Below, piece by piece: positions 13,975 through 46,154 of a stretch of DNA of 64,000 nucleotides. Position 1 is the first letter of the stretch. Each line of letters begins with the position of its first letter. A program made the translations under genes and the position numbers. The stretch spans positions 101,879-165,878 of the forward strand of contig JBFMAK010000003.1 in assembly GCA_040755695.1 (NCBI GenBank), written 5' to 3'. This stretch comes from Candidatus Iainarchaeum sp. GTDB lineage: Archaea > Iainarchaeota > Iainarchaeia > Iainarchaeales > 1-14-0-10-31-34. The notes beneath the pieces were generated by a model. The model had not been told where the DNA came from. It searched no databases and saw only the letters and a program-made list of their open reading frames with translations.

Positions 13975-14070
13975 AGCCCCGAGGAAATTTGAATCTGCGG
14001 ATTCAAAAACCTCGTGTCTGATAGCCCCGAGGAAATTTGAATCTGCGGATTCAAAAACCTCGTGTCTGAT
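13975..14070. repeat. Two tandem 48-bp direct repeats, each carrying a degenerate copy of the tRNA-Gln 3' end
   Basis: agccccgaggaaatttgaatctgcggattcaaaaacctcgtgtctgat occurs at 13975-14022 and 14023-14070. Its reverse complement ends ...TTCAAATTTCCTCGGGGCT, versus ...GTTCGAATCTCCTCGGGGCT in the tRNA. Confidence 0.8.
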
Positions 14071-14142
14071 AGCCCCGAGGAGATTCGAACTCCTGTCATC
14101 TCCTCCAGAGGGAGACATCCTTGACCGCTAGACTACGGGGCT
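14070..14142 (-). tRNA. tRNA-Gln (anticodon CUG)
   Basis: Minus-strand sequence AGCCCCG-TA-GTCT-AGCGGTCAA-GGAT-G-TCTCC-CTCTGGA-GGAGA-TGAC-AGGAG-TTCGAAT-CTCCT-CGGGGCT-A folds as a cloverleaf with all four stems paired. Anticodon loop is CT-CTG-GA. A1:U72 is typical of archaeal tRNA-Gln. CCA is not encoded. Confidence 0.85.
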
Positions 14143-14217: not shown

Positions 14218-14694
14218 TTAAGTGACAACGCATATGGCTCCATTTTTTTGTTTGTCACTGAATACTTGATTAGGCGTAAAATATTTAAGGCTTGAGTGCG
14301 GAGTGTTGTTGTACTCGCGCTGGAAGCGCGAGAGTAAGCGGTTAGCGTGTTTGAGGTTTTGAACCTCGAACTCATTCAAGAATCGTTTTATTTTTTTGAT
14401 GACTGCTTCTGCTTTTCCGTTGCATTTGGGATTGTGAATGCGTGTGTGAATGTGTTTGATGCCTAATAGACTGGCATCAAAGTTTTTGTGGTATTGTCTA
14501 CCATTGTCAGATAACAAGGCTTTGAATCCCCCCGTTTCTCGGATTGCTTGTTGTAGGTTGTCTATTGTGTTTGCAAGCGTTGCATGAGAATATGCTTGCA
14601 GTGCAAACAGTTTTCTGGATGCATCATCTTCATAGAATGAGAAGCAACAGTGTACTCCATCCAAAATGCGTTTTCTGCCCCAATCCGTATGCAT
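14218..14694 (-). CDS. Transposase C-terminal part (integrase core rve domain, DDE)
   Basis: HTDWG ... LLSDNGRQY ... NPKCNGKAEAVIKK match the D, D, E regions of rve transposases. The reading frame probably continues upstream of the first Met. Confidence 0.65.
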   Translation of the reverse strand: MHTDWGRKRILDGVHCCFSFYEDDASRKLFALQAYSHATLANTIDNLQQAIRETGGFKALLSDNGRQYHKNFDASLLGIKHIHTRIHNPKCNGKAEAVIKKIKRFLNEFEVQNLKHANRLLSRFQREYNNTPHSSLKYFTPNQVFSDKQKNGAICVVT

Positions 14695-16747: not shown

Positions 16748-17116
16748 TTGAAAAGAATGCTTTACAATAAAACCAGAAGAAAAGAGATAATTGGAAGAAT
16801 AAAAAAAGCTGGTTCTTTCTGGGGGAAATTCAAAGGCCTGATGCTCGAAAGAAAAGAGAAGTTCAATTACGGCCTTGTCTTTGATTTCAGGGCAGAGAAG
16901 AGGATTGAGGCAAGCATCCACATGCTCTTTGTCTTCTTCCCAATAGACTTGGTTTACTTGAACAAGGAAAAGAAGGTAATTGAATTAAAACACGGAATAA
17001 AGCCCTGGAGCCTGAACTACACCCCAAAAAGAAAGGCTCATTACCTTATAGAACTGCCTGAAGGCACAATCAAAAAGAAGAAGATTGGCCTGAAAGACGA
17101 ATTGAAATGGAATTGA
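16748..17116 (+). CDS. DUF192-family protein (COG1430-like)
   Basis: Pattern HMLFVFFPIDLVYLNKEKKVIELKHGIKPW ... AHYLIELPEG resembles DUF192. Confidence 0.5.
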   Translation: MKRMLYNKTRRKEIIGRIKKAGSFWGKFKGLMLERKEKFNYGLVFDFRAEKRIEASIHMLFVFFPIDLVYLNKEKKVIELKHGIKPWSLNYTPKRKAHYLIELPEGTIKKKKIGLKDELKWN

Positions 17117-17123: not shown

Positions 17124-17711
17124 TTAAATGAGCTCTTTCTCTAATTCAATTAAATTATATAATACGCCATATTTTCTGCCTTTGATTTTTTTTCCTGTTT
17201 CCTGCCATTTAAGGTATTTTAGTGCCTTAAGTTTTCTGGGGTCTGTTATGTTCACATATGTTTTGGCTTTTTTGTGGCCTAAGTTACTAAGAATTATTTC
17301 AGCAGTCTTTAGAGCATTGTTGGCGTCAAAAGCAGTTCTATGCTCAGGAAGAATTGAAAATCCCCCTATTTCTCCTGTGCTTGGGCGAATTGAAATTGTT
17401 CCAATCTTTTCCCCTGCTTTATTTATAACAAAATACCATCTTCTACTGTCTTTGATTAATTCTTTTGGGGTTCTCGGGATAGCAAGGAAGCGATTTTTTG
17501 ATTTCTTCATTAATTCAATGGCTTGAAATGCATCTCCTAATTGAAGCTTGAAACCCTTTCTCACAGGAATAAGATTATAAAAGCCGGTAATCTTTCTTTT
17601 CATAACAAAAAAGTAAAGGTTATAATTAATAAGCTTAATCACTATCCAAACAAAAAAGGGTTTATAGTAACTAATTTCTTTCCTGCCTTTTGCGAGCCAC
17701 TTGAGGGACAT
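17124..17711 (-). CDS. Hypothetical protein (possible acyl/acetyltransferase-like)
   Basis: 195 aa. Weak GNAT-like segment GTISIRPSTGEIGGFSILPEHR. Low confidence. Confidence 0.3.
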   Translation of the reverse strand: MSLKWLAKGRKEISYYKPFFVWIVIKLINYNLYFFVMKRKITGFYNLIPVRKGFKLQLGDAFQAIELMKKSKNRFLAIPRTPKELIKDSRRWYFVINKAGEKIGTISIRPSTGEIGGFSILPEHRTAFDANNALKTAEIILSNLGHKKAKTYVNITDPRKLKALKYLKWQETGKKIKGRKYGVLYNLIELEKELI

Positions 17712-17815
17712 TTTTGGTTATTGCGGGGCATTTACTAGGAAAGCATGCATATTTGAATCGTTAACCAATCGTTTAATTTTTCATTCAATCGTTTAATTAA
17801 ATAAAAAAAGTTTTT

Positions 17816-18829
17816 TTATTGTTTTAAGAAATAGTTGGTGGCTTTGCCTTTTCCGTTTCTCGCAATAAAATTGAGTTTAATTAATTCATTTAAATCAAAA
17901 GTAGCGGTTGCCTTCGTAACATTAAACATTTTACAGAATTGACTGGAATTAATTCTATTCATTTTCTGACTCAAGAAATTCAGCGCCTTAATCTGCCTTT
18001 CATTCAATCCTAGTTCTCTTAAATCAATTATTCTGGAGTCCTTAATTAAGTCCAAAATTTTTTCTTTCGGGCCAGGAAAGGTTACTTGAAAGGAAGCTCT
18101 TCTTGCTTCAAAGACAGGTTCTTTCAGTCCATGCTCTTTCATTAATTTTTTCATTTTGTTTAATCCTGAGCCAAGTCTTTCGACTTCATTTATTTTATTG
18201 AATAATTTAAGCAATAACTTGTTTCGAGGAAAACTCTTGTTCATTACTTCTTTTAGGGTTAAACCGAATGGAATGCTTCCGGGTGAAACAACCTCAATTC
18301 TGTCGTCAAAAATGTTAACGAAAACAAGAGTTGAATTAAAGTAGTAGTTTCTGTGGCATACTGCGTTAATGATTGCTTCTCTTATGGCAGTATAAGGATA
18401 TTCTTCTTTGTCAATTCTTTGAAATCCAATAAACTTTGAAGCAATCCTTGTATTCTTTTTAACAAATGTTTCGGCTTCGTTAACCAAATACAATAAATCG
18501 CCGGACAAGTCAGCTCTATCCAAAATATTGAATTTGTCTGTTCCTTGATAGCGAACGCAAGTAATGCAGGATTGCTCAACAAATTTTTCAGGTTCTAAAG
18601 CAAAAAATAAGACGCCAGCATTATTAACTGCCAAAACATTATCGGTCAATCTTGCAACACCAAGCTTCCATAAAGCATCTTCAATATTTAACTCTTCATT
18701 TATTCCTGCTTTATGCAAAAAATCATGCAATTTGTTTCTATCTAAATCTATTTCAATAGAAAAGTTTTCGCACAATAATTCGTCAAAGCCTTCCCCGTTA
18801 CTTAATTCCTCTCTTAAACCAACCGCCAA
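17816..18829 (-). CDS. COG2865-like putative transcriptional regulator (Schlafen/HATPase_c_4-like domain plus C-terminal HTH)
   Basis: YTAIREAIINAVCHRNY motif typical of HATPase_c_4/RecG-C-terminal-like regulators. C-terminal HTH-like LNERQIKALNFLSQKMNRINSSQFCKMFNVTKATATFDL. Confidence 0.5.
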   Translation of the reverse strand: MAVGLREELSNGEGFDELLCENFSIEIDLDRNKLHDFLHKAGINEELNIEDALWKLGVARLTDNVLAVNNAGVLFFALEPEKFVEQSCITCVRYQGTDKFNILDRADLSGDLLYLVNEAETFVKKNTRIASKFIGFQRIDKEEYPYTAIREAIINAVCHRNYYFNSTLVFVNIFDDRIEVVSPGSIPFGLTLKEVMNKSFPRNKLLLKLFNKINEVERLGSGLNKMKKLMKEHGLKEPVFEARRASFQVTFPGPKEKILDLIKDSRIIDLRELGLNERQIKALNFLSQKMNRINSSQFCKMFNVTKATATFDLNELIKLNFIARNGKGKATNYFLKQ

Positions 18830-18963
18830 AAAAACAATTCATGCAACATAAAGGAGGAGGAAACGAAAACAAATAAAAATCATTCCCTTCGTTATGGTAC
18901 GTTATCATACCAAAACAGAAGATTTAAATTTTGTTCTATTCAAGCATTGTTTTGGTGAAAGAA

Positions 18964-19320
18964 ATGAGGGAAAGCGTCTTCTTGGATTTCTTGGGAAACT
19001 CGCCTACAGCGCGGGTTTTGGACTTCCTTATTACTGGAAGAGAATTTGATTACTCTCTGACTGACATAGCCGAAAAATCTGAAATAGGCTGGACGACCTT
19101 GCACAGGATTCTACCATCACTGAAGAAAATGGAAATACTTGTCCCTACAAGGGCAGTAGGGAGGGCAAGGCTGTACAAGCTCAACCAAAAAAACGAGAAC
19201 GTGAAGAAGCTGATTGAATTGTACGACAGCCTGCTCAAAAGAGAGTTGGGCAAGGCAGAAGAAGAAAGCAGAGTGAAAGCAGTTGCAATTGAAAAGACAA
19301 GAAAAAGAACTAAAAACTAA
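18964..19320 (+). CDS. Winged-helix transcriptional regulator
   Basis: VLDFLITG ... LTDIAEKSEIGWTTLHRILPSLKKMEILVPTRAVGRARLYKLN is a wHTH. Start at internal ATG (MRESVFLDFL). Confidence 0.5.
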   Translation: MRESVFLDFLGNSPTARVLDFLITGREFDYSLTDIAEKSEIGWTTLHRILPSLKKMEILVPTRAVGRARLYKLNQKNENVKKLIELYDSLLKRELGKAEEESRVKAVAIEKTRKRTKN

Positions 19321-19712: not shown

Positions 19713-19886
19713 ATGGACTTAAGCCATTACATCAAGAAAAACAGGGTTAAAGCAGGAGACTTTGGGGCTCCAGCCAAGAGATGCCTTCAATGCGGCAAAG
19801 AATTAGAGAGAAACGAATCCCATTTATACTACCAAAGCTTCTGCTGCGAATTCTGCAAGCAAAAATACCTAAGCCCGAAATTATAA
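19713..19886 (+). CDS. Small zinc-ribbon protein (57 aa, CxxC...CCxxC)
   Basis: Translates to MDLSHYIKKNRVKAGDFGAPAKRCLQCGKELERNESHLYYQSFCCEFCKQKYLSPKL. Below the ORF-track length cutoff, so not listed there. Confidence 0.4.
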   Translation: MDLSHYIKKNRVKAGDFGAPAKRCLQCGKELERNESHLYYQSFCCEFCKQKYLSPKL

Positions 19887-21957: not shown

Positions 21958-22221
21958 ATGAATAAATTAAAACAAAAAATTTTGGTTTTGGGATTAATTG
22001 CACTAATTCTGCTAATGATAGGTTGCACTCAACCAAGCGCTCAGGGCGGCACAGGAAAAACAACAGGAGAAACCCTGAAAAGCGGTGCAGAATTAGAGAA
22101 CTTAAGCGACTTGCCTAACCCTGCATTAGGGGAAACTGACTACTTGGACGCAATTGGGGCAGCAGGAGACACAACAAACGCAATTCCAACAAAGCCCAAG
22201 ACCCCAACAACAGGCAAGTAA
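21958..22221 (+). CDS. Small secreted/lipoprotein-like protein
   Basis: Signal-like N-terminus LVLGLIALILLMIGC followed by a Gly/Thr-rich tail. Confidence 0.45.
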   Translation: MNKLKQKILVLGLIALILLMIGCTQPSAQGGTGKTTGETLKSGAELENLSDLPNPALGETDYLDAIGAAGDTTNAIPTKPKTPTTGK

Positions 22222-22303
22222 AAAAAAAAAATTCTTTCGTTTTCTGTCGTATGAAAAAATTTTTAATTAGTGCCCTCTATTTTTTTGGTTAGAGGGAGCT
22301 GGA

Positions 22304-23779
22304 TTGCACGCAAAGGAAAGAATTGAAGAAAGAGAGAAAAGAGAAACTGAAAGGCTTTTAGGCTTCAGGACAAGAAAAATAAAGAAAGAATTAATCCGCA
22401 AATTTCTGCTTAAAACTGATTCTATTGAATTGATTGAATTAAAAAACAGGCAGAAAATATACTTCCTCAAAGAATTCCCGGAGCTCTCGCTCGAAGAAGC
22501 AGAACTAGTGAAAGAGACAGTGGAAGAATTCCAGGCAAAAGAAGGCAGAGGAGAAGAAAAGAACTTGGCAAAAGAATTCAATTCCTACTGCAGGAGAAAC
22601 CTAATTGAATTAGACAGGGAACAAAAGAACTACCTGTACAAGCTGATAGAATCAATTGCATTCGGTTTCGGGCCATTAAACGCAATTCTTGCAGACGACA
22701 GCATAGAAGAAGTAAGCCTGGCAGGCTTAAGCGCAAGAAATCCAGTGCGCGTGTTCGAGAAAAGCCAAGGATGGATTGAAACCAACTTATATTACTCATC
22801 AGAGCAGACAGTCAAGGACTTAGTGAACAAGATGGCTAGAAAGATAGGGAGAAGGCTTTCAATGCAGACACCAAAAATAAATGCTGTCCTGCCAGACGGC
22901 TCAAGATTGAATGCAACAATAAAGCCTGTATCTTTTACCGGTCCAAGCTTTACTATAAGAAAATTCAGGGAAGAGCCTTTCACCCCATTAGACCTCATAA
23001 GAAACAATACCTTTACAGCAGAATTAATGGCCTTTACCTGGCTGGCACTGGAATCAGATGCAAGCATTGTGGTTGCAGGAAACACAGGCTCAGGAAAAAC
23101 TACCACATTGAATTCCCTCTTCAGTTTTGTTCCAAAAAACGAGAGAATAATTGCAGTAGAAGAAACCCCAGAAATAAAACTGCCTCACAGGCACTTAATC
23201 AAATTAAATACAATTGAAAGCCTTGGAATAGGAATGCAGGAACTTATAACAGACACACTGAGAATGAGGCCTGACAGGATAATTGTAGGGGAAATAAGAA
23301 GCAGGGAAGAAATAAACGCATTCATTGACACAATGCTCGCAGGACAAGGAAAGGGAAGCTATGCAACATTTCACGCGCAAAGCTCGCAGGAAGCAGTAAC
23401 AAGAATGAAAAATTACGGGATAATAGACCTAGACCTCCAATCAATTGACCTCATGCTAATACAGAAGAGATGGACTCAAGTAAACCTGAAGAAAAAACAG
23501 AGAAAGGAGACAAGGAAAATAATTGAAGCAAGCGAAATTCTATTGCAGGAGGGCAAGCTGAAGCTCAACAAATTATACGAATTCAATTACAAGAAAAACG
23601 AATTAGAGAAAAAAAGCCACGGCATTAAAGCAATGCAGAAGATAATGAACTGCTTGGGCTTAAGCAAAAGGAAAGCAGAAAAAGAAATAAAAAGAAGGGA
23701 AAAAATGCTCAAAAAAATGCTTGCAGAAAAATACAGCTTGAAGGAATTCTTTGAAAGAATAAACCAAGAAATGCAGTGA
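22304..23779 (+). CDS. Type IV pilus/Tad-like secretion ATPase (FlaI/TadA/CpaF, VirB11 superfamily)
   Basis: Walker A VVAGNTGSGKTT, Asp box and His box (RIIVGEIRS...ATFHA). TTG start preceded by AGAGGGAG RBS. Confidence 0.85.
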   Translation: MHAKERIEEREKRETERLLGFRTRKIKKELIRKFLLKTDSIELIELKNRQKIYFLKEFPELSLEEAELVKETVEEFQAKEGRGEEKNLAKEFNSYCRRNLIELDREQKNYLYKLIESIAFGFGPLNAILADDSIEEVSLAGLSARNPVRVFEKSQGWIETNLYYSSEQTVKDLVNKMARKIGRRLSMQTPKINAVLPDGSRLNATIKPVSFTGPSFTIRKFREEPFTPLDLIRNNTFTAELMAFTWLALESDASIVVAGNTGSGKTTTLNSLFSFVPKNERIIAVEETPEIKLPHRHLIKLNTIESLGIGMQELITDTLRMRPDRIIVGEIRSREEINAFIDTMLAGQGKGSYATFHAQSSQEAVTRMKNYGIIDLDLQSIDLMLIQKRWTQVNLKKKQRKETRKIIEASEILLQEGKLKLNKLYEFNYKKNELEKKSHGIKAMQKIMNCLGLSKRKAEKEIKRREKMLKKMLAEKYSLKEFFERINQEMQ

Positions 23780-23785
23780 GAAAAA

Positions 23786-24601
23786 ATGAAAATTGAAGAA
23801 GAAAAAGAAAAAATTTTGCTTGAAACACAAAAAAACCTTGAGAAAGCAAGGATAAACAAAAACGCAGAAAAATACTGGAAGGAAATTATTGCTTATTCTT
23901 CAATTGCAACAATAATTGCCTGGATTACTGCAGCGCTTTTAACACAGGAAATAATATTGAGCGCAATCCTTGCATTCACGCTTCTTGTTCTCGGAATCGC
24001 CTTGGGATACTATTATCCCTTGCACAAAAAGAATTCGATTGCAGGAGAAATAGAGAAGGAACTGCCTTTCGCCTTAATGTCAATGGCTGTAGAATTGAAC
24101 ATGAACCTGCCCTTCGAGAAGGCATTGAAGAATGCATCAAAAAGGAATTATGGAATTCTTTCAAAAGAATTGGAGAGGGCAACAAGAGAGATTTCATTGA
24201 AAGGAGCAAGCATACAGGAAGCCTTACTGCACTTGAGCGAGAGAATTGACTCAAGAAACTTGAAGAGGAGCATTGCACACTTGGTGAGCGTGAACGAACA
24301 GGGAAGCAAGAACGAGAGAGGAGAGCCAATAAAAAGGATTGCAAAAGAGCTTCTCTCAAAGCAGAGGGCAGAAGCAAAAGAATTTTCTGGAAAATTGATA
24401 ATCCTCTCACTGCTCTTCATTGCAGTCTCAGCAATAATCCCTGCAATGTTCCTGGCATTTGTCTCAATAGGCTCAATGTTCCTTGCAATAGAATTCACTC
24501 CAATCCAGGTAATAATAATTTCAGTAGTAGTCTTCCCTGCAATAGACTTGGCAATACTCTACCTAGTAAAACTCAAGACTCCAGTCTTTCTGAGGGAATA
24601 A
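23786..24601 (+). CDS. T2SS-F domain membrane protein (TadB-like half of FlaJ)
   Basis: Polytopic membrane protein. The cytoplasmic helical domain ELPFALMSMAVELNMNLPFEKALKNA resembles T2SSF. Confidence 0.7.
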   Translation: MKIEEEKEKILLETQKNLEKARINKNAEKYWKEIIAYSSIATIIAWITAALLTQEIILSAILAFTLLVLGIALGYYYPLHKKNSIAGEIEKELPFALMSMAVELNMNLPFEKALKNASKRNYGILSKELERATREISLKGASIQEALLHLSERIDSRNLKRSIAHLVSVNEQGSKNERGEPIKRIAKELLSKQRAEAKEFSGKLIILSLLFIAVSAIIPAMFLAFVSIGSMFLAIEFTPIQVIIISVVVFPAIDLAILYLVKLKTPVFLRE

Positions 24602-24604
24602 AAA

Positions 24605-25540
24605 ATGAAAATCATTCCTTCATTCAATTCAATAATAGAATATTTTTTTGGGAAAAAAAGCAGGATAGAATTCGAGGAAATGCTGAAAGAGAATGAGTGC
24701 AAGAAAAATTTGGAAGGAATAATAAAAGAAAGCCTCTTGCACGGCGCAGTTGCAGCGACAATTCTTTTCTCAATTCTTATATTCCTTGAATTCCCTTTTT
24801 TTTACTCAATAATTTTCTCATTAACTGCATTCTTCGCGCCTTTAATCCTCCAATACTCTTTTCAACTGCTATTGTTTGAGAAAAGAAAAAGAGAAAAAGA
24901 AAGAATGGTTCCTGACCTGCTACTGCAGGCAAGCCTTTTTCCGAGAGGTACAGCAACAACAAAAATAATAAGCTACATGGCCAAAACAGAATTCGGCCTG
25001 CTCAGCAAGGAATTCAAAAAAGTCAATTCAGAGATAAGGAAAGGAGCATCAATAGAAAAAGCGCTTTCAAGGATGCAGCAGAGATGCAAGAGCAAGATCG
25101 TAGAGAGGGCAGCAGACCTTTTAATTCAAGGCCACTCAAGCGGGGCAGAAATGCACTCTGTGTTCAAGGAGACAGCAGAAGACGTCCTTGAAACGCAATC
25201 AATTATAAGGGAAAGGAATGCAACAACAACAATAGAAAAATACACTGTACTAATGGCAGCCGCAATAATAGTACCATTAATTTTAGGGTTGATTGTAGGG
25301 CTGATAGAAGGACTGAATTTCCAGGGCATTGCAGAGCTGAGCCTTGGATTGAGTTCAAAAGAGAGAAAGGCACTGCTTGAAGCAGCACTCACAGCAAACT
25401 TCTCATACATAATTGAATATTCCTTGATTGCCTCCATCTTCATTTCACACCATGAAGGCAACAAAAAGAAAGCAATAATTTACTCCCTTATACTAATCCC
25501 TGCAAGCATAATCACTTACACGATTGCAAGGGCATTGTGA
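24605..25540 (+). CDS. T2SS-F domain membrane protein (TadC-like half of FlaJ)
   Basis: Second T2SSF-like protein. It follows the first after a 4-nt gap, consistent with a split platform protein. Confidence 0.7.
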   Translation: MKIIPSFNSIIEYFFGKKSRIEFEEMLKENECKKNLEGIIKESLLHGAVAATILFSILIFLEFPFFYSIIFSLTAFFAPLILQYSFQLLLFEKRKREKERMVPDLLLQASLFPRGTATTKIISYMAKTEFGLLSKEFKKVNSEIRKGASIEKALSRMQQRCKSKIVERAADLLIQGHSSGAEMHSVFKETAEDVLETQSIIRERNATTTIEKYTVLMAAAIIVPLILGLIVGLIEGLNFQGIAELSLGLSSKERKALLEAALTANFSYIIEYSLIASIFISHHEGNKKKAIIYSLILIPASIITYTIARAL

Positions 25541-25595: not shown

Positions 25596-25760
25596 ATGAG
25601 CATGAAATGCATTCACTGCAATACGCCGACAAAAAAAGTTTCAGCAAAAAGGAAATACTTCAACAGATGCTTAATTGAAAATGTGCAGATACTAAAATGC
25701 ACTAAATGCGGAGAAAAATATTTAGATGAAAACGAATACGAAAAAATAAAAATAATTTGA
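25596..25760 (+). CDS. Small zinc-ribbon protein (54 aa, CxxC...CxxC; YgiT/MqsA-type zinc finger-like)
   Basis: MSMKCIHCNTPTKKVSAKRKYFNRCLIENVQILKCTKCGEKYLDENEYEKIKII. Unlisted in the ORF track because it is under 60 aa. Confidence 0.4.
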   Translation: MSMKCIHCNTPTKKVSAKRKYFNRCLIENVQILKCTKCGEKYLDENEYEKIKII

Positions 25761-25774
25761 GAGGTGGTAAAAAA

Positions 25775-26056
25775 ATGAACTGGCGGAAGGCATTGCTTGG
25801 GGATTCAACCAAATACAGCTGGTACAATAAAGACGAATTGGAGGACAACAGGTTCACGTATTACCTGATTGTAGCAAATTATTTCCTTGTATGGGTTTTT
25901 TTCGGCGCATTGTTCCTGATGAAATTTGAGTTCAAGTACTGGATGAGCTTCCTAATACTGGGCCATTTATACATAATTGCCTTGTTGTTGATGAAGCTGA
26001 ACAACTTCGCTTTCATTTACCTGAATTCCCAGCTCAAAAAAGAGAAAAGGAAATAA
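25775..26056 (+). CDS. Hypothetical membrane protein
   Basis: Start at internal ATG after GAGGTGG RBS. Two TM helices. Confidence 0.4.
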   Translation: MNWRKALLGDSTKYSWYNKDELEDNRFTYYLIVANYFLVWVFFGALFLMKFEFKYWMSFLILGHLYIIALLLMKLNNFAFIYLNSQLKKEKRK

Positions 26057-26134: not shown

Positions 26135-26884
26135 ATGCCTGAAGAAATAAAAGTGAATTTTATTGAATATGAAAAAATGGATTTCTCTGACTACACACTG
26201 ATCGAAGGATTCCCGGGAATGGGCCTTGTAGGCACAATAGGAGCAAAATACCTGGCTGAAAGAATGAACTTCAGGGAAATAGGCTACATTGATGCTAATG
26301 TATTCATCCCAATAATAAGAATTCATCAAGGCATTCCAGTAAACCCCTCAAGGATTTATGCAAACGATAAATTGAAGCTGGCAATAATAATCTCCGAGCA
26401 AATAATCCCAAGATATTATACGGACAAACTGGCAAAAGCCGTAGTTGAATGGATCAAAGAAAAGAAGTTCAAAAGGCTCATATCGCTTGAAGGAATTAAC
26501 GCCGACCCAACGCAAAGCAAGGAAACCATTTACGGCATTGCAGCAAACGAGAAATCAAAGAAACTCTTGGACCAGTACGGCATAAAAATTGTAAGCGAAG
26601 GAATAACAACAGGCATAACCTCCCTCATGCTGTTAGAACTAAAGAAAACCAACATGGAGGCATTCAGCATTCTGGGGAATGTCAATATCCAGGCAGACTA
26701 CAAGGCAGCAGCAGCTCTCCTGGAAAAACTAAACCTGATATTAGGCTTGAACATAAGCATTGAGCCTTTAATGAAAGAAGCAAAAGAAACAGAGAAAGAA
26801 TTATTGAAGCATTTGGAGAACATAAAGAGAACCCACGGCGCAGTACAGAAACTCGAAGAAGACCAACCTCCAATGTACACGTGA
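26135..26884 (+). CDS. PAC2-family proteasome assembly chaperone
   Basis: LIEGFPGMGLVGTIGAKYL is the hallmark N-terminal motif of the PAC2 family (archaeal PbaA/B-like). Confidence 0.7.
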   Translation: MPEEIKVNFIEYEKMDFSDYTLIEGFPGMGLVGTIGAKYLAERMNFREIGYIDANVFIPIIRIHQGIPVNPSRIYANDKLKLAIIISEQIIPRYYTDKLAKAVVEWIKEKKFKRLISLEGINADPTQSKETIYGIAANEKSKKLLDQYGIKIVSEGITTGITSLMLLELKKTNMEAFSILGNVNIQADYKAAAALLEKLNLILGLNISIEPLMKEAKETEKELLKHLENIKRTHGAVQKLEEDQPPMYT

Positions 26885-27802: not shown

Positions 27803-30800
27803 CTATTTCCTTTTTCTGTTTTTCCTGTAATGGCCATTAGAGAACTTCGATTGAATTAAAGAGAAAGAGAACAGTAAAAGGGAAATGAACAAAATTAACA
27901 TGATTGGGTTTTCTGGAAGCGAGGGCAGAGAGAAAGGCTGGTTCTGGCCTGTGCCAATGTTTACATTCATGTAATTTCCTCCTGCAGTGGATTTGACTTC
28001 CCCGTCAGGGCCAACCATTGTCTGTATGCCTTTCTGCCTGAATTCGTCGCTTAAAGGAAGCAGTTGAGCGTTCTCTGCATAATACAGTCCTTTTGTGGGG
28101 TCATACCAGAAAGCCCCATTCGCTCCCTGCATGCTGTTGAGCTGTTCTTTAGAGCCATTATATTCTAGGTAAGGCCTGCCATTCTCTGCACCGAAAGCAA
28201 AGTCGTGTGTTTTCCCGTCACTTGTTGCGACCTGGAATCCGTTAGGCGTAGACTTTATTGCATCAATTGGTTGGTCGTAAACCTTTCCTGTCTCCTTGTC
28301 AATTATTCTCATGTGTGGTATGCAGTCAGGAGGCAAGGCATAGAAAATATAACGCCTTTTGTCTGTGTCGAAAACCTGGTAAGGCCCGAATTTGGCCAGA
28401 GATTTATTGAATTGGGCTGCATCAAACTGCAGGGCAGGAGAATTAGGGTCTCCTAAAATATTTAGGTCAAATGCTGGCTCATCGCAGTCAGTCACAGGAT
28501 TCTTGTATGTTGTGGGCGTAACCTTTATTCCTTGAACGTCATTCTGGCTTAAAATGCCTTTCTCGTTGTGCTTGAGCCAGAAAATCAATTCATTTGTCTC
28601 AAGCTTGAATACTATTACCCCGTTCTTTAATTGAATGGATTCAAGCTTTCCTACATCAGGGTCGTTGTCAGCAGAGCCCAAAAGAAGAACCTGCCTGTTC
28701 GCGTAAATTTCAATTTTTGGGGCATTTTCTGAAACTTTTCTCGGAAGGCCGTCTGCAATAATTTTGTTTCCTGAAATAAAAATGTCCGGGTGAGAGTTAG
28801 TTATAACAGAAAGAACTGGTCCAAAAGCATCGCTCAAATTCTCTCCTGTCAATTCAATTCCTGTCTGCTCTTTTACTCCTTCCTTAATACAGTCTAATAC
28901 CTCATTGTTCTTTGCAATCAATTCGCTGTCCAATCCAATGCCAAAAATCAGAATGTTTGAATCATAAGGCAGCCCAAGCCTTGTGAGCGTGTTAGGAATT
29001 TCAATTGCAGGAATATTAGTGTTAATGGAAGAAAGCCTCACGTTATCCTCTGAGGTAATAACTGGCTGGCCGTTAGCTGAAAGCACTCCTGTTTCTTTAT
29101 TTAATTCAACTGAAAGATTCTTGTCCTTAACTACAGTCTTGCCTGAGGTAATATAGCTTGCAACAGAACTGTCTCCAGGGGCAATCCATAAATAGAAAAG
29201 CTTTGAGCCCGCAACAGCCCCATCATTATTTCCTGAAACATCCAATGTCGCCTGCACTAAATCATTATCTGCTGCACTCTTAGTTAATTGTCCGATTTGG
29301 TCTTTCACATTATTCATTGCATCCTGTGTTATGCCCCCAGCCCCATTAAAGAGAGCTTCAGCCTTGTCTTTAGCGCCTGCAACAAAGTCTGAAACCTTTT
29401 CAGTTGAAAGCTTCTGCACATCCTTGTCTGAAGCCTTCTGCTCTTCTTTGGGGGGAATAGAAAATTGGACGTAATAGCCTTCCTCTGTATCAATGCAGTC
29501 CTGAAGCCTTGAAGCAACCACAATCTGCTGCACTGCACTGGTGAAAATCCCTGTCATTCCAAATATAGCATAACTCAAGTTCTCAGTAATGCCTAATGCA
29601 GCGGCAGCGCCTGAAGGACCCAATTTTTTTGCCAAGCCAATACCAAAGAATGCTTCTTCTAATTTGTCAGTGCAGGTCGTCTTCTCTTTTATTGCTTTCT
29701 CCAAATCTACTGGCTCGGTTGTTGTGCTGTCCTCAGTCTTTCCATCCAAATTCATGTGATGGGCATAGCTTATAAGCATTGAGCCTTTCTTTTTTTCTTT
29801 TTCCGGGGTGTCCTCTAAAATGATTGATTTTTGGTCTCCAATAGACCTGAAGTTTGCATTAAAGAAGCCAGTCTTTGAGGTTACAGTTATACTGCAGGAG
29901 GCCCCGCAATCATCTTTTCCGTAAGAATAGAACGCAATGCTTCCAACTTTTGTCCTTAAACCTGCTTCTGGTTTTGTTAATTTATCGTAAGTTTCTTTTG
30001 CAGGATTGAATTTATCTGAAACAGTATTCAAAACCCATTTCCAGGGAAGACTGTTAATTATTCTGACAAACATGTCTCCTGTGTCTGATCCTTCATTGGC
30101 AAAAAAGTCAATGAAAGCGTCATCAAAGATTTTTCCTTCTTTTGTGCTGAACAGAACATAACGCCAGCTTGAAGGAAGCTGGTAAGCACTCAATTCCTTG
30201 AAGCCTGCTCCTTTTTTAGCCCACCAGTAAAGATAAGGATAGGCAGTCCATTTTAATGCCCCGCCCTTTGTAGAAAAATATGCCTTGAAGAGCTTTTCCT
30301 CTTCTTTCTGGAATTTGTCCAAAACAGAATAATATTTTTTGTTAGCCCAGTTATGCTCTATAAAGTCCTCGTAAAGCCAGTTAGTCATCTTGCTTGTCTT
30401 CTTTATCCTGTCCTGGATGTAGTCGCCTGAAATTTCCCCCATTCTCTTTGGCGTAAGGACGTCTTCAACCTCTCTCCCTGTTTCATCAAGATAGGTTGCA
30501 GGGCCCCATGTGCCGGACTTGTAAATCTTAATGTTTGCTGGATTCCTTGAAACAATGTAATCCACAGTGCTTTTGTCTACAGGAATGTACTTGTTGGGTT
30601 CAATTTCTGCTACAACCTGCCTTGAAAACTTTCCTTTCATCACAGACTCTTTTAACCCTGCACCATCCATTGTAACTTCAAGCGGACCAACATCTTTTAT
30701 CTGGTATAATTGAATGCCGTCTCCTTTCATCCTGTATCTCTTCCATCCCTGGAAACTTCCTGCAAAATCTTTTCCAAGACCACCATATTTTGGGTCTCCT

Positions 30801-32296
30801 TTAAAAGTGTACATTATGTTGTTGTAAACGCTTGGGTCTGAAGAAATCGGAATAAATGTTTTTGTTTCTTCATTGAAGACAGCCTTGTAAGTCATTCCTG
30901 TTCTCTCCTGGTTGGCTAAATAAACAGGAAAGTCAGAGCCTATAATGTCATCGTAATTCACTGCAAGCTTTGTAAGGCCTGTTCCCCTTTCAGCATAAGC
31001 CTGGGCAACCAGCTTTTCCTTCAATGCCCTCTGCTCTGCAGTGAGAGCTCCAGGAAATTGGTCGTCAATTTGCTTTAATGCATGCTTGAAGTCATCATCT
31101 ATTTGTTTTGCAGCGAACTCTTCGGCATTATTGAATCTTTTCAAGTACTTGAAGGTATTCATTGCGTGCTTTCTTTCTTCTAAGGTTTTCATTCTTTCAA
31201 ATAATCCTCCTGGAGCCCAGGCCTTGTTCCTGAAGTCAAAGGACCTGCTAGTGGAATACATTGACATGTCTCCTGTAGCCCACTTCCATTCTATTTCTCC
31301 TAAATCCCATCTCCTTATCTCTTTGGCAAAGGTGTATGCGTTTGCCTTGCCAAACCATTGCTCTGGGTCATAAAGCTTTCCCCTAATCTTTTTTGTTACA
31401 GCCCAGTTGTCCCAGTTGCCTCCTTCAGAGAGGAATGGAATCATGCCCCTTCTTCCGGCCATCCCAAAGAGTTTGAATGCCCTTCCAAGCAGGACAGGGC
31501 CTACATTGGAAATTACAATGTCCAAGGAAAACCAGGTGTTGAAGTGCTTGTCAAACATGGAGTAAACTGAAATGACGCAGGAAGAATTATTGCAGGTTGT
31601 GCCCATTGAAGCCTTTAAGGAATCAGTGGAAATATAATTGCTGATGAAGTTTCCTGGAATCCTTGAGGCAGTGACGAACTCAATTCCGTTCTGGTCTGCT
31701 TCAGGCGATTCAATGTAGTCCTTTAGCATCTGCTTTTTCTCTGCGTCCATGTTCAATTGCTGGTCGCCCTTGTTTGAAAACAATTCCTTCAGGTCATTCC
31801 AGGCGCTTTTTGTAGCGCCCTTAATGCCTTCGCCTGAATTCCTTAAGGAAAGCTTGTTTCCATTAAGGGCGCAGGAATTGGTGTCCTTGCATCTTGCAGC
31901 TCGCAGGGTGTCATCCAATAAAATTCCAATAGAAAATCCTCCGGTGTACCTGTAATCCATCAAATACTTTAATTCGGGTACATCCATTTTCTGGTTCGGC
32001 AATTCAATTTTTGCTGCCTGGTTAGAGTCAAGGTCTGTGAGCACAGCAGTATTATTATCCAGTTTATCCCTGTCAGCGATTGGAGGCATGCCAGAGCTTA
32101 ATTCTTGTCCTTGGAAGCCCTCCTTTAAAATCTTGTCCTTGAATAAGGCGACCTCCTCTGGAGTCAAAGAAGAGGTATTACAGGAAAAGCCTGTCATTCC
32201 CTCTTCAGGCGCAGCTGCCTCCTGCGCGTAAGAATAATAAGAGAACTGGGTTGAAAGCAGGAGAATTACAACCATCAAAACAAATTCTTTTTTCAT
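27803..32296 (-). CDS. Large secreted surface protein (1497 aa) with C-terminal TM anchor and basic tail
   Basis: Signal peptide MKKEFVLMVVILLLSTQFSYYSYA|QE. C-terminus ...PSLPENPIMLILFISLLLFSFSLIQSKFSNGHYRKNRKRK (motif, TM, then basic tail). Confidence 0.7.
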   Translation of the reverse strand: MKKEFVLMVVILLLSTQFSYYSYAQEAAAPEEGMTGFSCNTSSLTPEEVALFKDKILKEGFQGQELSSGMPPIADRDKLDNNTAVLTDLDSNQAAKIELPNQKMDVPELKYLMDYRYTGGFSIGILLDDTLRAARCKDTNSCALNGNKLSLRNSGEGIKGATKSAWNDLKELFSNKGDQQLNMDAEKKQMLKDYIESPEADQNGIEFVTASRIPGNFISNYISTDSLKASMGTTCNNSSCVISVYSMFDKHFNTWFSLDIVISNVGPVLLGRAFKLFGMAGRRGMIPFLSEGGNWDNWAVTKKIRGKLYDPEQWFGKANAYTFAKEIRRWDLGEIEWKWATGDMSMYSTSRSFDFRNKAWAPGGLFERMKTLEERKHAMNTFKYLKRFNNAEEFAAKQIDDDFKHALKQIDDQFPGALTAEQRALKEKLVAQAYAERGTGLTKLAVNYDDIIGSDFPVYLANQERTGMTYKAVFNEETKTFIPISSDPSVYNNIMYTFKGDPKYGGLGKDFAGSFQGWKRYRMKGDGIQLYQIKDVGPLEVTMDGAGLKESVMKGKFSRQVVAEIEPNKYIPVDKSTVDYIVSRNPANIKIYKSGTWGPATYLDETGREVEDVLTPKRMGEISGDYIQDRIKKTSKMTNWLYEDFIEHNWANKKYYSVLDKFQKEEEKLFKAYFSTKGGALKWTAYPYLYWWAKKGAGFKELSAYQLPSSWRYVLFSTKEGKIFDDAFIDFFANEGSDTGDMFVRIINSLPWKWVLNTVSDKFNPAKETYDKLTKPEAGLRTKVGSIAFYSYGKDDCGASCSITVTSKTGFFNANFRSIGDQKSIILEDTPEKEKKKGSMLISYAHHMNLDGKTEDSTTTEPVDLEKAIKEKTTCTDKLEEAFFGIGLAKKLGPSGAAAALGITENLSYAIFGMTGIFTSAVQQIVVASRLQDCIDTEEGYYVQFSIPPKEEQKASDKDVQKLSTEKVSDFVAGAKDKAEALFNGAGGITQDAMNNVKDQIGQLTKSAADNDLVQATLDVSGNNDGAVAGSKLFYLWIAPGDSSVASYITSGKTVVKDKNLSVELNKETGVLSANGQPVITSEDNVRLSSINTNIPAIEIPNTLTRLGLPYDSNILIFGIGLDSELIAKNNEVLDCIKEGVKEQTGIELTGENLSDAFGPVLSVITNSHPDIFISGNKIIADGLPRKVSENAPKIEIYANRQVLLLGSADNDPDVGKLESIQLKNGVIVFKLETNELIFWLKHNEKGILSQNDVQGIKVTPTTYKNPVTDCDEPAFDLNILGDPNSPALQFDAAQFNKSLAKFGPYQVFDTDKRRYIFYALPPDCIPHMRIIDKETGKVYDQPIDAIKSTPNGFQVATSDGKTHDFAFGAENGRPYLEYNGSKEQLNSMQGANGAFWYDPTKGLYYAENAQLLPLSDEFRQKGIQTMVGPDGEVKSTAGGNYMNVNIGTGQNQPFSLPSLPENPIMLILFISLLLFSFSLIQSKFSNGHYRKNRKRK

Positions 32297-33643: not shown

Positions 33644-34309
33644 TTAAGCACAATTCAAATATTCCTGGCTGGCCAGAAAGCTTTTGTAGTCTGGGCTCGG
33701 CGTCCACATTATCAAGCCGACGACTGCCTCCACTGTTTCTAACGAGTCATCTTCCTTGATTTTAATTAATTTTATTTTAGAAAAAGAATTTGCGTTGGCG
33801 GAAACAGCCAGGGCAAAATCATTTATTCTACCCCTTGACTCAGGGCTGCAGGAATACTGAATTTTTTTCTTTTGGTCGAAATCAGTTGCATAAACAAAAA
33901 CAAAAGGAACTGAGGTAAGACCTTCCTCTTCAGGGGAAATAAAAAACAAGTAATCATAAGATTTTTCGACAGGCTTCATTGCAAACAATATATTCTTCTC
34001 TAACTGCTCTCTAGTGAAATCAAACTCCATGTCATCGGCATAATCCTCTTTCACTTCAGCCATAAGGAAATCAACCTCCTTTGAGGTAGAAAGGTCCTCT
34101 GCAGGATTTCTTGGAATGCTGCTGAAGAGGATTGACTTCATTGCAGCAGAAGCATAATCTGAAGTATAAGCAGAAGCAGCATAAGCGCTCACAGTCCTGC
34201 CGTACTGGCCTGAAAAATAGAATAGAAAAGTAACCAGCCCAGTCACAATAAGCAGGAAATACAATGCATCAGTAATTGCGGCCTGGCCTTTCCTGTTTCT
34301 TAACTCCAT
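33644..34309 (-). CDS. Pilin-like protein with class III signal peptide
   Basis: N-terminus MELRNRKGQ|AAITDALYFLLIVTGLVTFLFYF: a charged head, KGQ cleavage-like motif, then a hydrophobic helix. Confidence 0.55.
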   Translation of the reverse strand: MELRNRKGQAAITDALYFLLIVTGLVTFLFYFSGQYGRTVSAYAASAYTSDYASAAMKSILFSSIPRNPAEDLSTSKEVDFLMAEVKEDYADDMEFDFTREQLEKNILFAMKPVEKSYDYLFFISPEEEGLTSVPFVFVYATDFDQKKKIQYSCSPESRGRINDFALAVSANANSFSKIKLIKIKEDDSLETVEAVVGLIMWTPSPDYKSFLASQEYLNCA

Positions 34310-34821
34310 GCAATCACCACAAGAAACTTTTGCTCAATGACAGAGTCCTTGTCCAATGCAATGGGAAAAACCCTTGAAACAATCCTTGCAGAAGGGCTCT
34401 CTGACTCTTTTTTTAATTCAGAAATGCTCTCGCTCAAGCTCTTTGAAGTATTAGAGCACTCGAACTTGTTTGAAGGACCGGAAGAATTTTCTTCTGATTC
34501 AATGCTTGGTTCCAGTTCACCCAAATCAAGGTTGGCGTCCTTTATTATCAATGCAATATATTTAGGCGTCTTTACGTTAAGTGAAGCGCATAATTCCCTG
34601 AGAGAGGAATGACCTGACACAAGGCCTGTGCCCCTCAATGCATTGCTTATCTGCACTACAGCAACATCATTGTCGAAAGAGTCTGCCTTATTTGTGAATT
34701 CAGTCAAGGCAAAATAGAATACAGAAAAGAAGATTGTGAGGGCGAAAAGCAGTGGGATCAATGAAGGAAGGTCGTCCCCTATTGGCCCAAGAAAGCCTTT
34801 CTGCATTCTGTTTTTTTTCAT
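34300..34821 (-). CDS. Pilin-like protein (atypical class III signal)
   Basis: MKKNRMQKGF|LGPIGDDLPSLIPLLFALTIFFSVFYF. Confidence 0.4.
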   Translation of the reverse strand: MKKNRMQKGFLGPIGDDLPSLIPLLFALTIFFSVFYFALTEFTNKADSFDNDVAVVQISNALRGTGLVSGHSSLRELCASLNVKTPKYIALIIKDANLDLGELEPSIESEENSSGPSNKFECSNTSKSLSESISELKKESESPSARIVSRVFPIALDKDSVIEQKFLVVIAWS

Positions 34822-34828
34822 TTCAACA

Positions 34829-35437
34829 TCAGCTCACGGAATATAATTCGCAGTTAAAAGGCCCTGCCTTTCCGAAATTTGCAAGGCAGACTTTTCCTTG
34901 TGTACTGCAAGGAATAAAGTAAAGGATTTTCTTTCCTCCCACAACCTCTTTCACTAAAACAAAAGCATTAATGCGATGATTTTCTGAATCAATGTCTTGG
35001 GGGTCCAGTTTAATTTGGCTTGCCTCTGAGCAAGTGCCTGTAGTGCAGTCAAAAAATCTTATTTCTGCATTAACATCAAAAGAGTCCGCTGCAATCAAGT
35101 GAGTTAAATCAGTTCGAGGAAAGATCTGGAATATAATCCTGTTCAATCCAGAATCCAGGGGAAGGCTTTTGATTACCATTGCATAATACAGGCCCCTGCT
35201 GAATGCATTGGAGGGATTGGTTTCAATTGAATTCTGCAAGTAAAAAGTGTTTGTTTCGCATAAAGACTGGCTTACTACGGCAATATTGTATACGTCCTTT
35301 TCCTTCTGCTTGATGTAGCTTGAGGCAACGCTTTCAAGCATTACATTGCTCAAGCTTATCATGAAGAAAGATATAATTACGAATACAGCCGAAACAAGAA
35401 TCAATAAATTCATTTTGCTTAAAGTAAAGCCCAACAT
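34829..35437 (-). CDS. Putative pilin-like/membrane-anchored protein
   Basis: N-terminal hydrophobic anchor MNLLILVSAVFVIISFFMI. Located inside the pilin gene array. Confidence 0.35.
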   Translation of the reverse strand: MLGFTLSKMNLLILVSAVFVIISFFMISLSNVMLESVASSYIKQKEKDVYNIAVVSQSLCETNTFYLQNSIETNPSNAFSRGLYYAMVIKSLPLDSGLNRIIFQIFPRTDLTHLIAADSFDVNAEIRFFDCTTGTCSEASQIKLDPQDIDSENHRINAFVLVKEVVGGKKILYFIPCSTQGKVCLANFGKAGPFNCELYSVS

Positions 35438-35446
35438 TAAAAAAAC

Positions 35447-35986
35447 TCACCCTTTCTTGTAGTAAGCGCAAATTACCGGAAAGTTTTCTGTCGACTTCTG
35501 GTTGAATTCCAATTTATACAGGCCTCTCTCAATCTCATTCTCCGGATTCAAGTCAACCAAATCATAATCGCCAATTTTTGCAGGGCAGCCTTTATCCCCT
35601 GAATCAAAATATGTTGCCTGGCTTATGTTCAAGCACTTGTTTTCAATGTATCCTGCATCGCTCCTGTAATTCAATAGCAAGCATGACTTTAATGAGCCAG
35701 GGCAGACCCTGCATTGTATGGCCTCAATTGAACTGATGATTTTGATTTCTTCATTTTTTCCGCACTGGGACGCAATAAAAGAGAGTGGAGCAGCAGCAAT
35801 GGTTTCATTGTTTGCTACCTCCTGGATTTTCGCTGCAAGGTTGTCCAAGTCCTTGTTTTTCTCTTGCAGGCACTTCCTGTTTGATGCTTCAGTCATTGCA
35901 TACAATCCAATCAATATAACAAAAGTCATGAGGATTACTGCAACAAGAAGTTCAAAAGGGGCTTCCTCCTGCCCACTGCAATTCAT
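35447..35986 (-). CDS. Pilin-like protein with class III signal peptide
   Basis: MNCSGQ|EEAPFELLVAVILMTFVILIGL. The ATG overlaps the stop of the upstream small ORF as ATGA. Confidence 0.55.
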   Translation of the reverse strand: MNCSGQEEAPFELLVAVILMTFVILIGLYAMTEASNRKCLQEKNKDLDNLAAKIQEVANNETIAAAPLSFIASQCGKNEEIKIISSIEAIQCRVCPGSLKSCLLLNYRSDAGYIENKCLNISQATYFDSGDKGCPAKIGDYDLVDLNPENEIERGLYKLEFNQKSTENFPVICAYYKKG

Positions 35987-35988
35987 TT

Positions 35989-36150
35989 CACGTTCCCCCA
36001 AGAGTCTTCCTTGAAGTATTCATTGCGTTCTGGAACATTGGCTTAATTACTGCGATCAGCAAAAGGGCAGCAATAATAAGGATTACAAGCATGTAAACAG
36101 AATTCCACTCGCTCTGCGCTCTCTCCTCAGAAAAAAATTTTGATTCCATT
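35989..36150 (-). CDS. Small membrane protein (53 aa), possible minor pilin
   Basis: MESKFFSEERAQSEWNSVYMLVILIIAALLLIAVIKPMFQNAMNTSRKTLGGT. Stop/start ATGA overlap with the next pilin gene. Not in the ORF track because it is under 60 aa. Confidence 0.35.
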
Positions 36151-36227
36151 CAAAACATCACTAAAATAAGAACAGAAGAAATATATAAAACATTAGGCAA
36201 AAAAAGAGAAAAAGAGAGGGAAAGAAA

Positions 36228-44853: not shown

Positions 44854-44858
44854 AAAGA

Positions 44859-45467: not shown

Positions 45468-45473
45468 ATTTAA

Positions 45474-46055: not shown

Positions 46056-46154
46056 AAACCGGCTTAGTGTACTACGGGAAAAACAAAAACAGTGAAAACC
46101 TTTAAATAAACGTAAAACAATTATTTAATTGAAATTTGAATTTTTCGGGGTTGA

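Follow-up and report, generated by a model that had tools for sequence, protein, structure and literature searches.

A probable type IV pilus-like assembly motor with a two-gene platform, of archaeal affinity, in Candidatus Iainarchaeum

A 64,000-nucleotide stretch of Candidatus Iainarchaeum sp. DNA (contig JBFMAK010000003.1, positions 101,879 to 165,878), referred to below as the window and numbered from its first letter, carries at 22304-25540 three consecutive genes, here called set 1, for a secretion ATPase and two half-size membrane platform proteins; a second ATPase/platform set (set 2) lies ~12 kb away. Specifically, set 1 comprises the gene of the secretion/assembly ATPase (22304-23779, +; 491 aa, TTG start), a member of the T2SSE / VirB11-like superfamily of archaeal type IV pilus (T4P) type, open reading frame 2 (ORF2; 23786-24601, +; 271 aa), equivalent to the N-terminal repeat of a FlaJ/TadC/PilC-type platform and to TadC, and ORF3 (24605-25540, +; 311 aa), equivalent to the C-terminal repeat and, by position only, to TadB. 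The original prediction, made from the letters alone, had placed here a 491-aa ATPase followed by two T2SSF-domain membrane proteins, and this is borne out at exact coordinates and with Pfam scores above the cut-offs; since the profile matches are strong, these are not chance ORFs. The window is archaeal, with an intein-bearing geranylgeranyl reductase and a PAC2 proteasome chaperone among its genes. The nearest homologs that bear a name come from the DPANN phyla Ca. Diapherotrites/Iainarchaeota and Ca. Micrarchaeota, and the guanine-plus-cytosine (GC) content of the set-1 region is no different from the ~39% of the whole window.

The TTG start of the ATPase is supported by a Shine-Dalgarno-like GAGGGAG (22292-22298, +) that lies 5 nt ahead of it, and an ortholog with 92% identity (P0004) is annotated at the same length of 491 aa. 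The putative archaeal TATA-like box TTTTTAATTA (22260-22269, +), proposed from the sequence, is located ~35-44 nt 5' of the start codon, and 22304-25540 would form one operon with its own promoter. ORF2 and ORF3 share one reading frame and are separated only by a TAA and one codon (GAGGGAA TAA AAA ATG); the junction (24592-24607, +) consists of a Shine-Dalgarno-like GAGGG inside the end of ORF2, the TAA stop, an AAA spacer, and the ATG of ORF3.

The ATPase matches Pfam T2SSE (PF00437) with E=1.7e-37 and 129.4 bits, against a gathering cut-off of 24.9, and its catalytic motifs are intact, namely the Walker A (GNTGSGKTT), the Asp box (EETPE), the Walker B (RPDRIIVGEIR), and the His box (TFHA), so that both the domain score and the four motifs place it in the T2SSE / VirB11-like superfamily. 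Among the NCBIfam models, archaeal FlaI is at the top with 234.7 bits, under its cut-off of 550, and TadA (TIGR03819) is second with 173 bits, under its cut-off of 373, while in the PDB the A. fulgidus GspE (2OAP, 205 bits) precedes CpaF (147) and FlaI (139). The ATPase tree is a bootstrapped neighbour-joining (NJ) tree of 289 core columns with TrbB/VirB11 as outgroup and few references, EpdL of Methanococcus not being among them. The DPANN family of the set-1 ATPase is monophyletic in 100% of the bootstraps and, within these limited taxa, groups with CpaF/TadA in just 0.4%, whereas the archaeal ATPases, that is, FlaI, the A. fulgidus GspE (afGspE), the haloarchaeal PilB (halo-PilB), set 2, and the DPANN family, separate from CpaF and the outgroup with 79% support. 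The affinity of the set-1 ATPase is therefore archaeal, outside the TadA/CpaF clade.

Both ORF2 and ORF3 belong to the T2SSF platform family (PF00482; E=4.4e-8 and 33.6 bits for ORF2, E=3.1e-11 and 43.7 bits for ORF3, gathering cut-off 25.2), and predicted transmembrane segments flank the bundle on both sides. Compared with the PDB by sequence, the two proteins return spurious matches only; therefore, no solved TadB/TadC/FlaJ relative is detectable in this way, and a fold search was used. The AF2 (AlphaFold2) models are confident, with predicted local distance difference test (pLDDT) values of 95.9 for ORF2 and 91.5 for ORF3; the top 12 PDB fold matches of the former are all cytoplasmic domains of EpsF/OutF/TcpE/PilC, and the top matches of the latter are those of OutF/EpsF/PilC. 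The Foldseek probability is ~1, the target-normalised template-modelling (TM) score is 0.55-0.77, and only platform domains head the lists.

The two proteins cover different halves of the platform. On the NCBIfam models, ORF2 aligns to positions 8-244 of 484 of UpsF and 6-248 of 555 of FlaJ, and ORF3 to positions 257-537 of 555 of FlaJ, with FlaJ scores of 26.2 and 21.9 bits, respectively, against a cut-off of 550. Similarly, hhalign places the ORF2 family on residues 44-259 and the ORF3 family on residues 456-598 of a fused 701-aa haloarchaeal platform (L010). Set against the same haloarchaeal protein, the TadB of four bacterial tad loci (L009 and L011-L013) falls on its C-half and their TadC on its N-half, in agreement with Denise et al. 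(2019, PMC6668835), who assign TadB and TadC to the C- and N-half of the fused platform. ORF2 scores higher with TadC than with TadB (85.7 vs 67.1), whereas the scores of ORF3 (52.3 for TadB versus 53.9 for TadC) do not discriminate, which is why its equivalence to TadB is positional only. On these alignments, ORF2 is identified as the N-half and ORF3 as the C-half of an archaeal FlaJ/TadC-type platform; of the predicted pair of TadB-like and TadC-like genes, the TadC part stands, while the TadB part holds by position only and the order is the reverse of tadB-tadC.

Because ORF2 and ORF3 lie in one frame, a TAA and one codon apart, a nonsense mutation or a sequencing error needed to be excluded. 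A scan of a genome collection and contig look-ups yielded seven related archaeal loci (L001-L004 and L006-L008), each with two separate genes of ~252-271 and 305-311 aa behind the gene of an orthologous ATPase (45-92% identity). With the window, the split platform recurs in 8 loci from independent assemblies at 41-58% identity. The stop at the junction is TAA, TGA, or TAG depending on the locus, the gap is 0, 3, or 27 nt (27 nt in L006), and in L001 and L007 the genes overlap out of frame (-8 and -31 nt). A GAGGG/GGGGG Shine-Dalgarno-like motif is located just 5' of the second start in most of the related loci, and in L002, L003, L004, and L008 it is combined with an in-frame junction of 0-1 codons, as in the window. 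Moreover, the ratio of nonsynonymous to synonymous substitution rates (dN/dS), measured against L008, whose ATPase is 92% identical, is 0.11 for the ATPase, 0.08 for ORF2, and 0.16 for ORF3, compared with 0.05 for the neighbouring housekeeping PAC2 gene, and all three core genes are thus under purifying selection. The recurrence with differing junctions, the low dN/dS, and the confident models of the halves indicate that the split is an old, selected two-gene arrangement, and the platform is genuinely encoded by two genes, as had been proposed. An alternative genetic code or programmed read-through was discarded as the main explanation of the junction on account of the three different stops across the loci and of the two out-of-frame overlaps.

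Fused counterparts of the same platform exist. An exhaustive HMMER search with ORF3 against 1.84 billion representatives returned 1691 relatives, and among the best 150, which were sized, there are 87 of half size and 38 fused proteins (458-599 aa, median 562, against 582 aa for ORF2 plus ORF3). The fused platforms come from Ca. Diapherotrites and Ca. Micrarchaeota, and 38/38 are colinear with set 1, with ORF2 aligning to the N-terminal part (30-43% identity) and ORF3 to the C-terminal part (33-37%). At the locus L016, a fused 567-aa platform (P0158) directly follows an ATPase that nests within the set-1 ATPase family in 99.7% of the bootstraps. In the alignment of the junction, the split forms read …FLRE, stop, and Met at exactly the place where the fused proteins run on uninterrupted across the inter-repeat linker (…FLREGNG…). 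A coarse NJ tree built on the C-half has the two forms scattered among each other and calls for 14 or more switches of state; tree error raises this number, and genes truncated at contig ends possibly do so as well. The toggling is explained by the geometry of the junctions: most of them keep the frame, with 0-1 codons from stop to start, so that a single substitution can re-fuse the genes. The added value of the locus is that split and fused versions of one orthologous platform coexist, cut at the same linker.

These results do not support the claim that set 1 is split in the manner of bacterial Tad, as opposed to a fused archaeal FlaJ: the ATPase falls with the archaeal ATPases, ORF2 and ORF3 correspond to the N- and C-half of archaeal FlaJ/UpsF/halo-PilC profiles, close DPANN relatives are fused, and split tadC pairs had already been described in archaea (PMC4858521, PMC6668835, PMC6393860). 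Two tadC-like genes are a feature of Clade 1 (Epd) and of many archaeal loci of Clade 2 (Makarova, Koonin & Albers 2016, PMC4858521), and DPANN T4P islands have been drawn with TadC and TadB (PMC6393860). The Clade 2 ATPase/TadC modules, such as Haloferax PilB3/PilC3, resemble set 1 in a VirB11/FlaI-like ATPase followed by one or more T2SSF genes, in the two tadC-like genes of many loci, in the frequent lack of adjacent pilins, and in the ATPase, which in set 1 clusters with afGspE/halo-PilB/FlaI and not with bacterial TadA. They differ in that the set-1 DPANN ATPases form a clade of their own (100%), about half of the DPANN family has an N-terminal ferredoxin that is absent from the window copy, and its platform is both split and fused at the same linker position. 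As for the archaellum FlaI/FlaJ (ArlI/ArlJ), the best NCBIfam matches of all three set-1 proteins are the FlaI and FlaJ/UpsF models, and ORF2 and ORF3 together span the FlaJ profile end to end; in contrast, the scores lie far under the equivalog cut-offs, FlaJ is a single fused protein, and Pfam scans of the window detect no archaellins or FlaH/FlaG/FlaF/FlaX-type genes. The architecture of set 1 is therefore already known from archaeal T4P, the split is not a sign of bacterial ancestry, and the significance of the locus is incremental.

With a probability of roughly 0.75, set 1 is an operon for the core motor of an archaeal T4P-like assembly machine in a DPANN-type archaeon, with a platform made of two half-size subunits. 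The domain identities, the conservation of the split, purifying selection, the fold, the colinearity with fused orthologs, and the archaeal affinity of the ATPase are the observations behind this reading, from which we infer how the machine would work. A hexameric secretion ATPase would act on a platform in which ORF2 supplies the first repeat and ORF3 the second. Given the Shine-Dalgarno-like motif inside the end of ORF2 and the 3 nt between stop and start, the two would probably be made in equal amounts by translational coupling, and an ORF2:ORF3 heterodimer would probably be equivalent to one fused protomer. With three heterodimers (a 3+3 stoichiometry), the ATPase hexamer would face six cytoplasmic bundles and would power the insertion of prepilin-derived subunits into a surface filament. 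PulF-type platforms are trimers beneath a hexameric ATPase, and a trimer of heterodimers has been proposed for TadB/TadC (PMC10790770); in the Epd system, EpdJ and EpdK are both essential for piliation (PMC4371748). The pilin subunits and the prepilin peptidase of set 1 would be supplied in trans from elsewhere, possibly with the pilins beside set 2, and archaeal ATPase/TadC modules without adjacent pilins that use pilins in trans are known, including those of Haloferax and Halobacterium (PMC4858521). Lastly, a FlaJ/TadC-type gene of ~560-580 aa would have been broken within its inter-repeat linker to give the split, and the fused and split states would have interconverted within the DPANN family.

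Several results weigh against a pilus motor or against parts of this scheme. No ORF with a class III signal peptide lies beside set 1 in the window, as had been predicted, nor at the equivalent spot in the related loci examined, in a screen by a FlaFind-like regular expression and inspection by eye that an atypical very short pilin could escape. Pfam scans of the ORFs of the 64-kb window find no prepilin peptidase (Peptidase_A24) and no FlaH/KaiC-like or MinD/TadZ-like accessory ATPase, and the conserved neighbours of set 1 are a PAC2 homolog and a convergent ~1500-aa surface protein rather than classical pilus genes. Furthermore, the fold matches of ORF2 and ORF3 have weak Foldseek E-values (0.14-0.6), the phylogenies come from NJ with bootstrapping on few references, none of them EpdL of Methanococcus, and the polarity of split and fused states is ambiguous by parsimony, the C-half NJ tree leaving the root state undecided. 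Small ORFs near set 1 were considered as short Flp/Epd-like pilins and rejected, all being without a class III signal peptide: an 87-aa ORF (21958-22221), which is lipoprotein-like (LLMIGC), a 99-aa ORF (25757-26056), which codes for a membrane protein with two transmembrane segments, and a 54-aa (25596-25760) and a 57-aa ORF (19713-19886), which are zinc ribbons.

The origin of the split is the point at which an alternative fares best. Fission has been proposed as the origin of the TadB/TadC and Epd platforms (Denise et al. 2019, PMC6668835), and the DPANN family could be a "living" example of such a fission, independent of Tad/Epd, in which the two-repeat platform gene was severed at one inter-repeat linker and in some lineages joined up there again, with an in-frame junction that lets one base change toggle between fused protomer and heterodimer; this is a tentative proposal, to which we give somewhat less than even odds. 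If it is true, split and fused platforms would be functionally interchangeable, and the permuted bacterial order, with tadB (the C-half) first, would be a later rearrangement. Alternatively, set 1 may belong to the Epd-like/Tad clade and have inherited a single ancient fission (Denise et al.), in which case the fused DPANN forms would be re-fusions. Two platform genes with one T2SSF each are the hallmark of Tad and of the Epd-like systems (PMC6668835), the root state stays ambiguous when parsimony is applied to the C-half tree, the fused L016/P0158 lineage stands among split lineages and looks like at least one re-fusion, in-frame colinear junctions make re-fusion a one-step event (a single base change in the stop codon), and the Prokaryotic Genome Annotation Pipeline (PGAP) names several members of the set-1 ATPase family "TadA" or "CpaF family". 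The Epd pilus of M. maripaludis (EpdL, EpdJ, and EpdK) and its Epd-like clade resemble set 1 in having one ATPase and two single-T2SSF platforms and in that the major pilins are often encoded apart from the motor genes (PMC4858521). Conversely, the ATPase family falls with FlaI/afGspE/halo-PilB and hardly ever with CpaF/TadA, Tad being the reported sister of the Epd-like systems, and its FlaI-model score exceeds its TadA-model score, both under the cut-off. The order ATPase, N-half, C-half is opposite to bacterial tadA-tadB-tadC and unlike the Epd order of platform, platform, ATPase, and FlaH-like gene (PMC6668835), and Pfam scans of the window reveal no FlaH-like or TadZ-like gene and no EppA-type peptidase. 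Inheritance of the ancient fission is accordingly judged unlikely, if still the better of the alternatives.

A less probable alternative concerns the function, namely that set 1 is not a pilus motor but a device for export or surface assembly, for example of the ~1500-aa protein, or an apparatus for DNA uptake or host interaction. Homologs of this protein (27803-32296) are encoded downstream of the ATPase/half-platform block in 7/7 related loci, no pilin is adjacent in any locus examined, and evolution is known to have recruited type IV filament machines to secretion and to DNA uptake (PMC6668835). However, the signal peptide of the ~1500-aa protein is of the ordinary Sec type and not of class III, the protein also carries a C-terminal anchor, and the synteny may be mere lineage gene order, as it extends to the housekeeping PAC2 gene. 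In Haloferax and Halobacterium, ATPase/TadC modules without pilin genes of their own are documented to assemble trans-encoded pilins (PMC4858521), and secretion and DNA-uptake variants also polymerise pilin-like subunits; we therefore regard a non-pilus device as improbable, and a T4P-like motor as the preferred function.

Acquisition of a bacterial Tad system by horizontal transfer is very improbable. Set 1 shares with bacterial Tad/Flp (type IVc) a single ATPase and a platform of two single-domain paralogs, with one T2SSF domain per platform gene like TadB/TadC, and likely also the way of working, with a trimer of heterodimers set below the hexameric ATPase (PMC10790770); among the PDB matches CpaF comes second (147 bits), and some relatives are automatically named "TadA/CpaF". 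In contrast, the ATPase lies outside the TadA clade (0.4% bootstrap) and below the TIGR03819 cut-off, its affinity is archaeal, and its family is widespread and monophyletic in DPANN. The bacterial order tadA-tadB-tadC puts the C-half first, whereas set 1 has the N-half first, in the order of the fused gene. Accessory genes that occur in the reference tad loci (L009 and L011-L013), namely TadZ/CpaE, Flp pilin, CpaA/TadV peptidase, CpaB/RcpC, and secretin, go undetected in Pfam scans of the ORFs of the window, and TadE/F/G, also carried by those loci, are absent as well; moreover, the GC content of the set-1 region matches the rest of the window. Finally, the idea that ORF2 and ORF3 are a fused platform gene broken by nonsense mutation, pseudogenisation, or assembly error, suggested by their common frame across a TAA and one codon and by the existence of full-length fused relatives, is effectively refuted already by the recurrence of the split in 8 independent assemblies with three stop codons and two out-of-frame overlaps, the Shine-Dalgarno-like motif kept 5' of the second start, the dN/dS of 0.08 and 0.16, and the half-size of 87/150 best library representatives.

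The second machinery of the window is of a different kind. The set-2 ATPase (39733-42018, -; 761 aa) has a ~300-aa N-terminal extension and matches T2SSE with E=1.8e-16, and the set-2 platform (37312-39687, -; 791 aa) has multiple predicted transmembrane segments and one T2SSF domain (residues 179-301, E=4.8e-6). Its description as a fused two-repeat protein draws on its length, its transmembrane count, and a weak hhalign match, since Pfam finds no second T2SSF in the C-terminal part. Adjoining it, five or six small ORFs (33644-36752, -) have class III signal-peptide-like N-termini, for example MNSKG|QEFSVFKLLISAVIAVVILTLLL and MELRNRKG|QAAITDALYFLLIVTGL, and none of them has a Pfam match; these pilin-like genes are candidate filament subunits that set 1 might use in trans. 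Sets 1 and 2 together extend over 19.7 kb, consistent with the prediction of two ATPase/platform sets within 20 kb. That they are distinct machines is upheld by the platforms (271+311 aa split vs 791 aa fused) and by the pilin-like genes, which lie beside set 2 only. The possibility of a recent duplication, which would have spoken against distinct machines, is countered by an identity of 25% over 352 aa between the ATPases, which are therefore not recent duplicates, by their differing partners, and by the separate long branch of the set-2 ATPase in the tree.

Another pilin-like gene (54072-55721, +) lies between two giant ORFs and codes for a protein of 549 aa whose class III signal peptide (MKSKG|FTLFTALVSFVLIVL) is of textbook form. 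The giant proteins (46155-54050, +, and 55907-63544, +; 2631 and 2545 aa) contain CarboxypepD_reg, SpaA, MG3, and Ig-like domains and have in common an unusual ~45-aa cytoplasmic N-terminal motif (…GIPVY…D..E..GIP.FP…) followed by a signal-anchor helix. Just 5' of them lies an exosortase/archaeosortase-like gene (44284-44853, +; PF09721, E=3e-6), and 44284-63544 may be a third surface-structure locus.

The ATPase family varies among the related loci. Among the homologs closest to the set-1 ATPase, about half (570-623 aa) bear an N-terminal 4Fe-4S dicluster ferredoxin (Fer4) domain, recognised by CxxCxxCxxxC motifs and PF12838/PF12837/PF00037 (L001:5647-7455, L006:8001-9800, L016:885-2597, proteins P0005, P0008, P0010-P0012, P0095, and others). 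The window ATPase and its 92% relative are without it, and Fer4 and non-Fer4 ATPases are intermingled in the tree. A literature search for a ferredoxin-fused type IV filament or secretion ATPase found no description, and the fusion could point to redox control of the motor. At L004:3503-4892, the ortholog of the ATPase is present as two overlapping ORFs (133 and 377 aa), which suggests a frameshift or an assembly error, and the label of this locus, "Thaumarchaeota archaeon AB_1215_Bin_64", looks doubtful because every other named relative is from DPANN.

Around set 1, gene order is partly conserved. The PAC2 (proteasome assembly chaperone 2) homolog (26135-26884, +) lies just 3' of the platform genes and is present in 7/8 loci with 54-96% identity, which is probably conserved gene order with no obvious functional link. 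The convergent ~1500-aa surface protein (27803-32296, -) is encoded 3' of the ATPase/half-platform block in 8/8 loci; its homologs in L001-L004 and L006-L008 are 34-90% identical, chiefly in the C-terminal third, and it has a Sec-type signal peptide, a C-terminal transmembrane anchor with basic residues after it, and no Pfam match. It could be an S-layer protein or adhesin tied to the motor, or its position could reflect mere lineage synteny. A 662-aa protein encoded upstream of set 1 was left out as a component of the locus, being conserved only in the closest relative, L008. A DUF192 (COG1430) gene occurs near the motor in the window (16748-17116, +) and in L008 (5847-6224), immediately upstream of it in L016 (130-486), and also next to tadC in the bacterial tad locus of Moraxella bovis (L012:7998-8321); it may be an unrecognised accessory gene of Tad/T4P-like systems, and a literature search for a link between DUF192 and pili found nothing relevant. 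Compared with L016, the genes at 17124-19320, which code for a HATPase_c_4 regulator and a helix-turn-helix (HTH) protein, appear to be an insertion between DUF192 and the motor. A small Cys-rich zinc-ribbon protein (CxxCGK…YYQSFCxExCKxKY, 49-68 aa) is conserved upstream of the motor (window 19713-19886, +; L008:7406-7612; L016:672-821, where it directly precedes the ATPase); this protein, possibly a regulator, is no pilin. On the other side of set 1, 3' of ORF3, the 54-aa ORF (25596-25760, +) codes for a double-CxxC zinc ribbon with a weak DUF7479 match, and its homolog at L001:9167-9663 follows a 91-aa ORF that is not in the window and, as a guess from the sequence, might be the toxin partner of a toxin-antitoxin pair.

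Elsewhere in the window, a gene of the geranylgeranyl reductase family (11062-13833, +; TIGR02032, E=6e-50) is interrupted by an intein, with matches to the N-terminal splicing region and to the large-intein type over residues ~270-815. A tRNA-Gln(CTG) gene (14070-14142, -) adjoins an apparently truncated ORF with an rve-type integrase core domain (14218-14694, -; 158 aa), and the pair may be the remnant of an integrated element. Two adjacent genes for an NTP_transf_2 minimal nucleotidyltransferase (MNT; 44859-45467, -) and a HEPN protein (45474-46055, -) form a typical MNT-HEPN toxin-antitoxin pair.

As regards its meaning, the analysis corrects the annotation, in that a split platform does not imply bacterial Tad ancestry. 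The coexistence of split and fused forms illustrates the fission model for TadB/TadC-like platforms and constitutes a tractable natural experiment on the origin of TadB/TadC-like heterodimeric platforms and on their equivalence to fused PilC/FlaJ protomers. For the organism, the window shows that this DPANN-type genome codes for two type IV filament motors unrelated to each other, a point that bears on the attachment of small, probably host-dependent archaea to surfaces or partner cells.

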